From a virus (Duplodnaviria > Heunggongvirae > Uroviricota > Caudoviricetes): 50,738 nt of DNA. The DNA is taken from the IMG/VR virus record IMGVR_UViG_3300010279_000007. The stretch is one strand, 5' to 3'. The notes beneath the pieces are model-generated. The model searched no databases and was not told the origin of the DNA. It worked only from the letters and a program-made list of their open reading frames with translations. The position numbers and the translations under genes are program-made. Each line of letters opens with the position of its first letter. The first letter of the stretch is position 1. Below, piece after piece: positions 13,795 through 16,163 of this stretch.

Positions 13795-14769
13795 TTATCC
13801 GTTACCGCACGACGGTTTCTGCGTGATAAACGTCTCAAGCATCTTTTCCGCAATTGCCGACCAGGTGTGACACTGGACCTTTTCAGCATTTTTCACGCGA
13901 TCAACGCGAGCAATAACCTCATCCCAATCAATCCGCGACTTGATAACCATATGGTTCACCAAAGCCAGGCGATCTGGCGGAAGGCAATCGGGAGGCGTTA
14001 ATACCAACGCCCCGCACATTGCCGCCTCAAGTACAGTTAATCCAAGGCTTTCGGGATGCGTAACGATAAAAACGTCACTCTTACGCAATTCAGCTGCAAA
14101 TTCGGTTGCTGGCACCGGCGTCCGCCTGTATGGAGTTACCGAAATATTCCCCGGATCAATGGTAACCAATCCGTCATCAGTCAACGTTCTGGCCTCATAC
14201 GGAACGGTCAGACGCTGAAGGTTCATAAGGATACTTAAGGAGTGATCAAAACCACTAACATCAAATGCAGCGTGGTCTACAAAAATACGCAGAACATCGT
14301 CCGTTTTGGTTTCCAGATGGAACAGCTCCTGATTCGCTGCCCATCCAACATGTTTGTTAAAGCGATTATGACGTTCTAACCGACCGGGATTATCCAGGTA
14401 CCGCCAGGTATCATCGCGGACAGTAAAAGTAATATCGACTGGTGCCGAATCCAGCATAGAACCGTCATATACCTGGGCTACCCATCCAGAGAATCGGCGA
14501 CACAGTTGCATGCCTATTTCCCTGGGTACCGTAGTAAAATACCTCAATCCTGGTGCCAAAATGGCCTTCGCAGAACATGCTGTCGCAGCAGTCAACACAG
14601 CTTCAACATAATCCTCGGGGCTTTCGACGCCAGGGGAATATGGACGATGGTATTGCAATGTTACCCCTGCCTCACTAAAGGCGCAGGCCAGGTTATAAGA
14701 CCACATTTCCGTATATGTTTTCACATCACTGATGGCTGCAAATTTTCGCCCAATGATCAGGATGTTCAT
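13795..14769 (-). CDS. GT-B fold glycosyltransferase (GT4-like)
   Basis: N-terminal MNILIIG Rossmann start; C-terminal ESLGLTVLEAAMCGALVL motif; GAGGA RBS before ATG at 14769; immediately downstream of ban. Confidence 0.6.
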   Translation of the reverse strand: MNILIIGRKFAAISDVKTYTEMWSYNLACAFSEAGVTLQYHRPYSPGVESPEDYVEAVLTAATACSAKAILAPGLRYFTTVPREIGMQLCRRFSGWVAQVYDGSMLDSAPVDITFTVRDDTWRYLDNPGRLERHNRFNKHVGWAANQELFHLETKTDDVLRIFVDHAAFDVSGFDHSLSILMNLQRLTVPYEARTLTDDGLVTIDPGNISVTPYRRTPVPATEFAAELRKSDVFIVTHPESLGLTVLEAAMCGALVLTPPDCLPPDRLALVNHMVIKSRIDWDEVIARVDRVKNAEKVQCHTWSAIAEKMLETFITQKPSCGNG

Positions 14770-14792
14770 CGGCTTTTCCTCATTCCATTGCA

Positions 14793-16163
14793 TTAATAAT
14801 CCTCTTGCCAGTCAGCACCGGCATAGTTATCAAACCGTGAGTATTGGCCGTTAAAAGCCAATCTCACCGTGCCAATTGGGCCATTTCGTTGCTTTCCGAT
14901 AATTACCTCGGCAATGCCCTTCATTTCGCTATCCGGGTGATAAACTTCGTCGCGATACAGAAACATAATCAGGTCTGCGTCCTGCTCAATTGCTCCTGAT
15001 TCACGTAAATCTGAATTTACCGGTCGTTTGTCCGCACGCTGTTCAAGTGAACGATTAAGTTGTGACAATGCCACCACCGGTACTTGTAATTCCTTCGCCA
15101 AAGCCTTCAGTGAGCGAGAAATCTCGGCAATTTCCAGCGTTCGGTTATCTTGCAGCTCGGGGACGCGCATAAGTTGCAGGTAGTCGATCATAATCATGCT
15201 CAAACCACCATTTTCTTTATAAACACGACGAGCGCGGGAACGAAGCTCTGTAGGTGTCAGGGCGCTTGAGTCATCAATAAAAATATTTTGCTTGTCCAAC
15301 AGAATCCCCATTGCGCCAGAAACCCGCGCCCAATCCTCGTCGTTAAGTTGCCCTGTTCGAATACGAGTCTGATCAACGCGTGCAAGAGAAGCCAGTGAGC
15401 GCATCATCAGCTGGTGGCTCGGCATCTCAAGGCTAAAAACCAATACGGGCTTATAGTTACGGACTGCGGCATTTTCGACGAGATTCATCGCAAACGTGGT
15501 CTTCCCCATAGATGGGCGGGCGGCGACAATGATGAGATCGGACGGCTGAAGCCCTGCCGTCTTCTTATTGAGATCGGTAAATCCCGTATCAAGCCCCGTT
15601 ACACCATCATGTGGTCGCTGAAACAACTCTTCTATGCGAGATACCGTTGCATCGAGAATGCTGGCGATATCTTTTGGACCACTACCGCTCTTTTGTCGTT
15701 TTTCAGCTATTTCAAAAACGCGGCGCTCGGCCATATCCAGCAATTCATTGCTGCCCCTGCCATCCTGCGCATATCCAGCTTCGGCTATTTCATTTGCGAC
15801 GGAAATCATTTCACGAACAACCGCGCGTTCACGAACGATATCCGCATAAGCACAAATATTTGCCGCGCTGGGCGTGTTCTTTGACATCTCCGCAAGGTAC
15901 GCAAAACCACCGGCGCGTTCTAATTTACCGTTCTGTTCAAGTGCTTCAGCAAGTGTTATCAAATCAATCGGTTTGCCATGACTTAATAACCTCTCCATCT
16001 CACTGAAAATTTCACGATGAGCACTGGTATAAAAATCATCAGCAACTATACGATCTGCAACTTCATCCCAGCGGCAGTTATCAAGCATTAAGCCACCAAG
16101 TACAGCTTGTTCTGCACTAAGGGAATTTGGCATGGATTCAAGAGGGGATGCAGACATTAGCAC
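14793..16163 (-). CDS. ban: replicative DNA helicase, DnaB homolog
   Basis: 456 aa near-colinear with E. coli DnaB (SVLGGLMLDN, IIVAARPSMGKTTFA, LSQLNRSLEQRADKRP, IIGKQRNGP). Confidence 0.95.
   Translation of the reverse strand: MLMSASPLESMPNSLSAEQAVLGGLMLDNCRWDEVADRIVADDFYTSAHREIFSEMERLLSHGKPIDLITLAEALEQNGKLERAGGFAYLAEMSKNTPSAANICAYADIVRERAVVREMISVANEIAEAGYAQDGRGSNELLDMAERRVFEIAEKRQKSGSGPKDIASILDATVSRIEELFQRPHDGVTGLDTGFTDLNKKTAGLQPSDLIIVAARPSMGKTTFAMNLVENAAVRNYKPVLVFSLEMPSHQLMMRSLASLARVDQTRIRTGQLNDEDWARVSGAMGILLDKQNIFIDDSSALTPTELRSRARRVYKENGGLSMIMIDYLQLMRVPELQDNRTLEIAEISRSLKALAKELQVPVVALSQLNRSLEQRADKRPVNSDLRESGAIEQDADLIMFLYRDEVYHPDSEMKGIAEVIIGKQRNGPIGTVRLAFNGQYSRFDNYAGADWQEDY

Follow-up and report, generated by a model that had tools for sequence, protein, structure and literature searches.

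What is a glycosyltransferase gene doing directly behind the gene for a replicative helicase? The question is raised by a 50,738-nucleotide (nt) stretch of DNA from a virus of the Caudoviricetes (IMG/VR record IMGVR_UViG_3300010279_000007), referred to at its full length as ‘the window’. An initial annotation, made from the letters alone, noticed here a GT-B glycosyltransferase closely coupled to a DnaB homolog. The two genes are those known in phage P1 as dbn and ban:

13795–14769, minus strand: dbn (glt in phage P7), encoding a GT4-like GT-B glycosyltransferase of 324 amino acids (aa), from ATG 14769 (the probable true start) to TAA.
14793–16157, minus strand: ban, encoding a DnaB-type replicative helicase of 454 aa from the ATG annotated in P1; the open frame reaches a GTG at 16163.

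With a probability of roughly 0.6, we read Dbn as the optional fourth enzyme of a mobile phage glycan cassette, the core of which would be PmgO, PmgP, and PmgQ; dbn would be reached by read-through from ban and would have been relocated behind ban in P1. Dbn most likely helps to build a small glycan rather than modify DNA.

The gene itself is readily identified. A megablast search of window positions 13700–16600 against phage genomes matched P1 ban–dbn with 100% coverage and 99.4% identity, and phages JL22 and P7 with 99.6% and 97.9% identity, respectively. The window Dbn is 99.1% identical in amino acid sequence to P1 Dbn (YP_006544) and 96.9% identical to P7 Glt, and the ban product matches Pfam DnaB_C (E = 1e-107) and the DnaB N-terminal domain (E = 3e-35). 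The open reading frame (ORF) behind ban is dbn of phage P1, already annotated as such, and the initial observation is correct but not new: the P1 GenBank record, in an annotation that dates from 2004, lists dbn as “function unknown, possible glycosyltransferase”, P7 annotators named it glt, a “putative glycosyltransferase”, and other records give a “glycosyltransferase family 4 protein”. P1 Dbn and P7 Glt represent the same gene in the same place, i.e., behind ban and convergent with gene 5, and nothing substantive distinguishes them from the window gene, although the window phage has an extra tRNA-Tyr upstream. We considered and dropped a recent foreign acquisition of dbn, whose GC content (48.8%) and third-position GC content (GC3, 47.4%) match those of ban and the whole window and therefore give no compositional signal of foreign origin.

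The enzyme class was approached through structure prediction. The AlphaFold2 model of Dbn, built on 17 homologs, has a mean predicted local distance difference test (pLDDT) score of 88.1 and a predicted template modeling (pTM) score of 0.85. At E ≤ 0.001, a Foldseek comparison with the PDB returned 105 matches; of the best 50, 47 are GT-B proteins, either glycosyltransferases or UDP (uridine diphosphate)-sugar 2-epimerases. The best matches are GlgM, MshA, sucrose-phosphate synthase, PimB’, BshA, and PimA, with E-values of 6e-10 to 1e-6 among the leaders, followed by GtfC, Gtf3, the lipopolysaccharide (LPS)-biosynthesis glycosyltransferase 5n80, and a glycosyltransferase of phage HY126. This fold comparison was required because, when the sequences of Dbn, PmgO, PmgP, and PmgQ were searched against the PDB, nothing beyond marginal or spurious matches resulted (e.g., the KtrA Rossmann domain and ribosomal P0). 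Pfam Glycos_transf_1 (PF00534) matches Dbn residues 229–315, in the C-terminal domain, with E = 1.5e-5 and 25.0 bits against a gathering score of 26.4 bits, and a precomputed Pfam table lists the same family for the P1 Dbn cluster. The EX7E motif (THPESLGLTVLEAA) contains E248 and E256 (332-aa numbering), both of which, like H246, are invariant in 17/17 aligned homologs. Dbn thereby resembles the retaining GT4 enzymes of the GT-B fold (GlgM, MshA, PimA/PimB’, BshA, and WaaG-type), with which it shares two Rossmann domains, the C-terminal EX7E, and the Glycos_transf_1 match, but it is only 9–13% identical to the solved members (TM-score 0.5–0.66), is shorter (324 aa versus ~360–400 aa), and scores just under the Pfam gathering score. 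Among 50 distinct P1-like dbn alleles, the pairwise ratio of nonsynonymous to synonymous substitution rates (dN/dS) relative to the window is 0.09–0.16, and only one allele has an internal stop. Judged by its modeled fold and its alleles, dbn truly encodes a GT-B glycosyltransferase and is kept under purifying selection; the GT-B assignment in the initial annotation is borne out by the AlphaFold2 model and its GT4-type GT-B matches in the PDB.

Within this large class, Dbn forms a small, discrete subfamily. PHROGs places it in an unnamed family, and a family profile search of 1.84 billion representatives found 377 proteins at E ≤ 0.001 and stopped short of the general GT4 superfamily, which is expected to be far larger. 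Longer members of the Dbn family have uninformative fusion partners, i.e., a methyltransferase, a second GT1 domain, or none. The best viral fold match of Dbn, found in BFVD, is the Tupanvirus glycosyltransferase A0A6N1NPH0 (TM 0.76–0.79, E = 5e-17, 17% identity), which is clearly closer to Dbn than any solved structure.

The evidence that bears most on the role of Dbn comes from the neighborhoods of its homologs. We compared 11 loci outside P1 (39–58% identity to Dbn), with flanks of up to 8–10 kb per side and 1–4 kb in the shortest contigs, and a DnaB gene was found near the Dbn homolog in 0/11. A scan of viral contigs with the Dbn profile gave near-identical P1-like loci only, and a scan of genome contigs gave three loci, with L092 being the informative one. 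Across the sequences compared, the ban–dbn linkage is confined to P1-like phages, an apparent P1-lineage arrangement that offers no clue to function. What flanks the Dbn homologs of non-P1 phages is instead homologs of P1 pmgO, pmgP, and pmgQ, genes that lie 6–8 kb from dbn in the window. The homologs found within contiguous cassettes are 43–58% identical to Dbn, and the gene orders at the phage loci are as follows:

L095, lambdoid: PmgO-PmgP-Dbn-PmgQ.
L004, lambdoid: PmgO-PmgP-(extra GT-A-like gene)-Dbn-PmgQ.
L098, metagenomic contig: PmgO-PmgP-PmgP-Dbn-PmgQ, with two PmgP-like genes.
EP_H11 (L181), cultured E. coli phage: PmgO-PmgP-Dbn-PmgQ.
L005, unclassified phage contig: PmgP-Dbn-PmgQ-PmgO.
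L003 and L094, phage-plasmid lineage: PmgM-O-P-Q-S as in P1, with Dbn 5–7 kb off on the same replicon.

A related order recurs in bacteria. At four bacterial loci (Colwellia L006, L009, and L096; Brucella pseudogrignonensis L092), the Dbn homolog lies no more than two genes downstream of an MptE-like/WaaZ-like gene, and in L006, L092, and L096 the two are clustered with genes for ABC transporters, export, or additional glycosyltransferases. The MptE-like neighbors match the WaaZ model TIGR04437 with E = 1e-15 and 57.5 bits, against a cut-off of 200 bits. Two side observations concern cassette genes in other phages. In EP_H11 (OP688485), the PmgP homolog (L181, 6400–7008) falls mostly in an unannotated gap, and its gene is seemingly missing from the GenBank record. 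Distant PmgP homologs (29–30% identity) are also encoded by the Stenotrophomonas jumbo phages CM1 and RAS14 and the Xanthomonas phages XacN1 and Xoo-sp13 (>300 kb); CM1 and RAS14 carry, in addition, a Dbn homolog (26%) ~14 kb from the PmgP homolog, which extends the enzyme pair beyond temperate phages of enterobacteria.

The corresponding region of the window contains the following features:

5302–6003, minus strand: pmgQ (hdmD in P7), encoding a probable GT-A (GT8-like) glycosyltransferase; directly downstream of the Dbn homolog in other phages.
6000–6692, minus strand: ppp, encoding a lambda-type Ser/Thr phosphatase (Pfam Metallophos, E = 9e-16), between pmgP and pmgQ in the slot filled by Dbn elsewhere.
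6674–7300, minus strand: pmgP (hdmC in P7), a paralog of pmgO with an MptE/CstII-like predicted fold; upstream of the Dbn homolog in L004, L005, L095, L098, and EP_H11.
7198–7860, minus strand: pmgO (hdmB in P7), encoding an MptE-like/sialyltransferase-fold protein, the putative functional partner of dbn.
8908–8924, plus strand: C1 operator (Op82/O26) where the promoters of gene 26 and the pmgL–pmgQ operon diverge, from a pattern search (two mismatches) and the P1 annotation.

By class, the partner proteins are Kdo- or sialyltransferase-like (PmgO and PmgP) and GT8-like (PmgQ). PmgO matches PHROG 4603, “alpha-2,3-sialyltransferase” (E = 4e-74), and Pfam MptE-like below threshold (E = 5.7e-5). 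The AlphaFold2 model of PmgP (pLDDT 93.9) finds archaeal MptE (HPPK) and the sialyltransferases CstII/Cst-I as its best PDB fold matches, all of them weak (E 0.008–0.3, TM 0.4–0.5). PmgQ matches PHROG 1962, “glycosyltransferase” (E = 2.5e-128) and, weakly, the Skp1 alpha-galactosyltransferase 6mw5; it has an invariant DxD (D79, D81) and a C-terminal FHGxPRP(W) motif, which we take to be typical of GT8-type GT-A enzymes. By their weak Pfam MptE-like matches, and by the likeness of the PmgP fold to MptE and CstII/Cst-I, PmgO and PmgP resemble the transferases of CMP (cytidine monophosphate)-activated ulosonic acids with an MptE-like/GT42-like fold, i.e., the WaaZ Kdo (3-deoxy-D-manno-octulosonic acid) III transferase, Maf, and CstII, although all matches fall below family thresholds, and MptE being a pyrophosphokinase, a transferase activity is presumed. 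The Maf flagellin glycosyltransferases are presumably linked to PmgO/PmgP through membership of Pfam PF01973.

Dbn appears to be an accessory to this core since its family is much smaller than that of PmgP (23 clusters versus >328 in the same kind of search) and the slot between PmgP and PmgQ varies in content, being empty in some cases and in others occupied by a GT-A-like gene of 189 aa, Dbn, both, or, in P1, P7, and relatives, ppp. Many phages have PmgO-PmgP-PmgQ without Dbn. The carriers of the cassette include myophages, lambdoid phages, HK97-like prophages, and phage-plasmids (L004, L005, L095, L098, L099, L101, L103, L104, L107, and L181). The cassette directly follows the major capsid gene in the Pseudomonas prophages L099 and L101 and in contig L107, and starts one gene after it in Ochrobactrum L100, with head-closure and connector genes coming after the cassette in L099, L100, and L101. 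In the lambdoid L004, L095, L103, and phiNP, its place is just upstream of terminase, with the lysis genes on the other side. The resemblance of hdmB to orf7 of Pseudomonas phage D3 led P7 annotators to name these genes hdmA–D, for “head morphogenesis”. No sugar-nucleotide-synthesis domain was found in genes adjoining the cassettes that we looked at, and all hosts named in the searches are Gram-negative proteobacteria, in keeping with a dependence on CMP-Kdo. In P1, dbn, pmgO, pmgP, and pmgQ are non-essential by CRISPR interference (PMC10695390), and in-frame deletion mutants exist for all four, showing them to be dispensable (PMC9024508), which fits a decorative or accessory role.

How, then, is dbn expressed from its place behind ban? 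The two genes meet, and dbn ends, at the following features:

14770–14795, minus strand: ban–dbn junction, with TAATG, eight extra codons (MQWNEEKP), and a GAGGA ribosome-binding site (RBS) for ATG 14769.
13748–13774, both strands: hairpin between dbn and the convergent gene 5 (baseplate hub, plus strand), a putative bidirectional intrinsic terminator.

The helicase ORF runs from 16163 to 14793 on the minus strand and ends with TAA at 14795–14793. An ATG at 14793–14791 shares one base with this stop and opens an ORF of 332 aa that ends at 13795, and a second in-frame ATG lies at 14769, 23 nt from the ban stop (minus-strand junction, GAGGATTATTAATGCAATGGAATGAGGAAAAGCCGATGAAC). The initial annotation had placed the glycosyltransferase ORF within 30 nt of the ban stop, with an ATG overlapping the TAA, and both features are read directly here. 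The TAATG is unchanged in 48/50 distinct P1-like sequences and is TGATG in the other two. As for the start codon, GAGGA precedes both ATGs by 6–7 nt, and the sequence by itself does not choose between them; the RBS at 14769, which the initial annotation had called the better one, is not clearly so. Homologs nonetheless favor the start it pointed to: 15/15 full-length non-P1 homologs in the alignment begin at or near the Met equivalent to 14769 (M[KNR][ILV]L[IVM]IG) and lack the 8-residue extension, and six P1-like contigs (L081–083, L085, L086, and L090) are 99% identical from ATG 14769 on and unrelated directly upstream, where they have their own AAGGAG. Because non-P1 homologs lack the extension and these contigs lose homology just upstream, the true start of dbn is, from this comparison, most likely ATG 14769. 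The annotated lengths differ (332 aa in P1, 287 aa in P7), and the comparative data favor 324 aa. The P7 gene (L002, 1596–2459), annotated with a start 135 nt past ban, looks too short because the full 324-aa frame is kept at 96.9% identity. The same six contigs present a further peculiarity: ban is split into ORFs of 150 aa (N-terminal domain) and 326 aa (C-terminal domain), as seen in L082 (8331–10004), where an extra ORF of 101 aa without a Pfam match is inserted between split ban and dbn.

Upstream of ban, the operon, which is under C1/Bof control, is laid out as follows:

18862–18889: bivalent C1 repressor operator Oban (Op72a/b), overlapping Pban, with a perfect 17-mer at 18873–18889 and a two-mismatch partner at 18862–18878.
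17960–18206, minus strand: tRNA-Thr, tRNA-Tyr, and tRNA-Asn cluster at the start of the operon (ARAGORN, Rfam).
16630–17228, minus strand: tciB and tciA (ORFs and P1 annotation); P1 has an annotated small tciC between tciB and trnI.
16444–16519, minus strand: trnI (anticodon CAT; tRNA-Ile2 in the P1 annotation), directly upstream of ban (ARAGORN; Rfam tRNA, 64.7 bits).

From Pban, the order on one strand is tRNA-Asn, tRNA-Tyr, tRNA-Thr, tciA, tciB, tciC, trnI, ban, and dbn, which puts four tRNA genes between the C1 operator and ban. A pattern search found nine operator-like sites in the window, with 0.15 expected. No promoter- or terminator-like site fits into the 23-nt spacer, and the scan gave no terminator-like site at 14769–14795; a promoter and terminator between the two genes, the arrangement that the initial annotation thought would speak against joint expression, were thus looked for and not found there. 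The promoters P1dbn and P2dbn of the P1 record, both within ban, are computational predictions only; the scan recovered one predicted promoter of that record (15430–15403, 9/12 matches), and the region has fewer promoter-like sites than shuffled sequence does (3 versus 6.1). An independent dbn promoter was set aside as a candidate, the predicted sites inside ban being the only ones and there being no evidence either way. At the other end, RNAfold gives the hairpin at 13748–13774 11 pairs and a 5-nt loop, with a free energy of −19.1 kcal/mol on the plus and −18.0 kcal/mol on the minus strand and a U-rich 3’ side on both. It is absent from the output of a consensus terminator scan, probably because the U run is partly within the stem; of the bidirectional terminator proposed behind dbn, the hairpin is present, but the scan did not flag it.

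Published RNA-seq of P1vir (bioRxiv 10.64898/2025.12.28.696737, Table S1) provides log2 fold changes in the wild type at 10 and 20 min of 6.2 and 7.9 for ban, 6.8 and 8.6 for pmgO, and 5.9 and 8.1 for pmgQ, all significant, and of 3.7 and 4.7 for dbn, neither significant. The rise of dbn mRNA parallels that of ban but is ~6–9-fold lower, which agrees with attenuated read-through without proving anything about how the transcripts are built. Like ban, pmgO and pmgQ show induction at 10 min, and C1 operators are present in the two operons. Because the 23-nt spacer leaves no room for a promoter or terminator and dbn is the last gene before the hairpin, read-through from ban is the simplest route of expression, and co-transcription from the C1 operator is plausible. 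The expectation that dbn is co-expressed with the helicase and tRNAs under one operator is therefore only partly upheld: the shared strand, the short spacer, and the upstream operator agree with it, but dbn induction is weaker and non-significant, and a strong intrinsic-terminator-like hairpin follows the operator. The latter, at 18699–18680 on the minus strand (GCCCATCTTCGGGTGGGC, then seven T), lies between the C1 operator/Pban and the tRNAs, so transcripts from Pban would need read-through or processing to reach the tRNAs, ban, and dbn. It is situated near the estimated end of the “dicF-like region” annotated in P1; Rfam reported no DicF at the gathering score. Two further observations were made in this part of the window. 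The tRNA-Tyr (anticodon GTA, 87 nt) at 18040–18126 on the minus strand (ARAGORN; Rfam tRNA model, 41.9 bits) has no counterpart in the P1 reference, where only tRNA-Thr and tRNA-Asn are found and trnT and trnA are directly adjacent; the window phage is therefore a P1 relative with an enlarged tRNA set. Similarly, the longest open frame of dmt, the DNA methyltransferase gene upstream of Pban (18880–20898, minus strand), is 672 aa, compared with 754 aa in the P1-like L082 and the same length implied by the P1 coding sequence of 2265 nt, so that its N-terminus differs from the reference. A tRNA-related function for Dbn was rejected, as no scanned non-P1 locus links Dbn to tRNA genes.

With gene identity, fold, motif, selection, gene order, and linkage as the observed frame, we infer donors and an order of action for the proposed cassette. 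Dbn would be a cytoplasmic, retaining GT4-type GT-B enzyme translated from ATG 14769 of the C1-repressed ban operon, and therefore made on derepression or during lytic growth. Its place behind the helicase gene would be a chance product of how the P1 genome is arranged, with no functional tie to ban. PmgO and PmgP (MptE/WaaZ/sialyltransferase-fold) and PmgQ (GT8-like, with DxD) would form the core. PmgO and PmgP may prime the acceptor with a CMP-activated ulosonic acid, probably Kdo because it is the sole such donor expected from every Gram-negative host of these phages; PmgQ and Dbn may then add hexoses from UDP-sugars, with Dbn varying or extending the glycan. As sugar-nucleotide-synthesis domains are lacking among the neighbors of the cassettes examined and the named hosts are Gram-negative, CMP-Kdo and UDP-hexoses would be supplied by the host.

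As the acceptor, a virion (head) protein is slightly favored, at somewhat below even odds, because of the late structural gene positions and the apparently cytoplasmic enzymes; the LPS inner core or another lipid-linked glycan is a possible but doubtful acceptor. Virion glycosylation has precedents in mycobacteriophage capsid/tail glycosyltransferases and the giant-virus fibril, which likewise involve several glycosyltransferase genes in or beside structural clusters; it is from genes of this kind that capsid glycosylation is deduced in mycobacteriophage annotations (PMC11256854). The enzyme families differ from those of the cassette, and the resemblance is one of genome position only; for P1 or related Gram-negative phages, there is no evidence of virion glycosylation.

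Several points weigh against a cassette that includes Dbn and acts on the virion. The phages that carry it have unrelated capsid proteins (HK97-type, lambda E-type, and P1-type), which does not sit well with one specific virion acceptor, and the bacterial Dbn homologs belong to polysaccharide pathways, not protein glycosylation. The P1 cassette genes are already expressed at 10 min, which counts against a virion acceptor and fits an LPS or lipid-linked one. In P1 itself, dbn is ~7.8 kb from pmgQ in another operon, and its mRNA is induced less than that of ban, pmgO, and pmgQ. The assignments of PmgO and PmgP are weak, with Pfam MptE-like below the gathering score, and the top fold match of PmgP is a pyrophosphokinase, not a transferase (E ≥ 0.008, TM ≤ 0.5). 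The main text of a paper on the virion proteome, studied with liquid chromatography coupled to tandem mass spectrometry, the design of which was not aimed at glycosylation, does not mention it; no biochemical or genetic phenotype exists for dbn, pmgO, pmgP, or pmgQ; and the context sample is small (11 Dbn loci and ~15 PmgP loci).

Some of these points suit a different account, in which, during lytic growth, Dbn, PmgO, PmgP, and PmgQ act on the cytoplasmic side of the inner membrane to modify Kdo2-lipid A, the inner core, or some other lipid-linked glycan. The receptor of P1 is glucose of the LPS core, and an altered or truncated core could limit superinfection or the loss of progeny on debris. 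The enterobacterial LPS core is assembled by Waa enzymes that include a WaaZ-type Kdo transferase and members of GT4 and GT8, and the four cassette enzymes match these classes; along the same lines, 5n80 is among the Dbn fold matches, the MptE-like neighbors of bacterial Dbn homologs match the WaaZ model, albeit below its cut-off, and the bacterial homologs themselves are placed in polysaccharide loci. A conserved host acceptor would also account for the cassette in phages with unrelated virion proteins, and for P1 cassette genes that are on by 10 min. However, most non-P1 phages have the cassette within late structural operons, at which stage little LPS could be renewed, the C1 operators in P1 presumably keep the genes repressed in lysogens, which leaves no classical lysogenic conversion, and the deletions have no plaquing phenotype (PMC9024508). 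Overall, we consider this account rather unlikely. It is much less probable that dbn is a lone accessory gene (a moron) acting on some host molecule, with its proximity to pmgP and pmgQ elsewhere reflecting shared insertion hot spots. The lysis-to-terminase interval of lambdoid phages is a known hot spot for accessory genes, as the phiNP layout illustrates, many cassette-bearing phages lack dbn, and in P1, L003, and L094 the gene stands apart from the cassette in another transcription unit. Yet five independent phage loci have Dbn at one internal site, always between PmgP and PmgQ, and the order MptE-like to Dbn-like is repeated in four bacterial polysaccharide loci; hot spots would not explain the linkage.

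There remains the thought with which the locus began, namely that Dbn glycosylates phage DNA or another replication-linked substrate and was placed with ban so that modification goes along with replication, in the manner of the T4 alpha- and beta-glucosyltransferases (AGT and BGT), as position and analogy hinted in the initial annotation. Dbn does share with T4 AGT (GT72), T4 BGT (GT63), and the HY126 enzyme a GT-B fold and an origin in phages, and in P1-like phages its gene is physically coupled to a replication gene. The HY126 glycosyltransferase (9iqz) is its sixth PDB fold match (E = 1.2e-8, TM 0.57, 12% identity); HY126 DNA carries arabinosylated 5-hydroxycytosine (PMC13326640), and the 9iqz chain itself presumably acts on DNA. 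On the other hand, the ban linkage is missing from the fetched flanks of 11/11 non-P1 loci, an oligosaccharide product is implied by the conserved partners, which are themselves glycosyltransferases, and the bacterial homologs stand in capsule-type loci. T4 AGT and BGT are recovered neither by a PDB-wide profile search at E ≤ 10 nor among the best 50 Foldseek matches in the PDB and BFVD. P1 DNA is cut by ordinary restriction enzymes, and we know of no base-hydroxymethylating or -hydroxylating enzyme described for P1; none was found in the examined parts of the window, which spans about half of a P1-size genome and was not scanned systematically for one. Finally, in-frame deletion of dbn leaves plaquing and antirestriction activity unchanged (PMC9024508). 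The neighborhood, profile, and fold evidence, together with this published phenotype, lead us to reject Dbn as a DNA glucosyltransferase, and any DNA-directed or replication-linked role is very improbable.

The optional-fourth-enzyme reading of Dbn changes the company in which the gene is considered. The initial observation adds nothing to the 2004 annotation of P1, and the useful part is the reframing around the cassette: dbn is better studied with pmgO, pmgP, and pmgQ than with replication, which turns four “function unknown” genes of a model phage into one testable hypothesis. In the boldest form of this hypothesis, which is speculative and rather unlikely as it stands, P1 and many unrelated phages of Gram-negative hosts (lambdoid phages, HK97-like phages, phage-plasmids, and some jumbo phages) would share a mobile cassette of 3–5 glycosyltransferases, namely PmgO, PmgP, and PmgQ with or without Dbn and a GT-A-like gene. 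From sugar nucleotides of the host, these enzymes would make an oligosaccharide that contains Kdo and resembles the LPS core, and would attach it to the virion, probably to the head; dbn would be a glycan-diversifying module. If true, phages of Gram-negative hosts would thereby gain their first described virion glycosylation system, and a glycan on the virion would bear on immunogenicity, phage therapy, and the P1-type phage-plasmids that spread resistance genes. If the glycan were instead placed on LPS, the cassette would constitute a lytic-phase mechanism of receptor remodeling.

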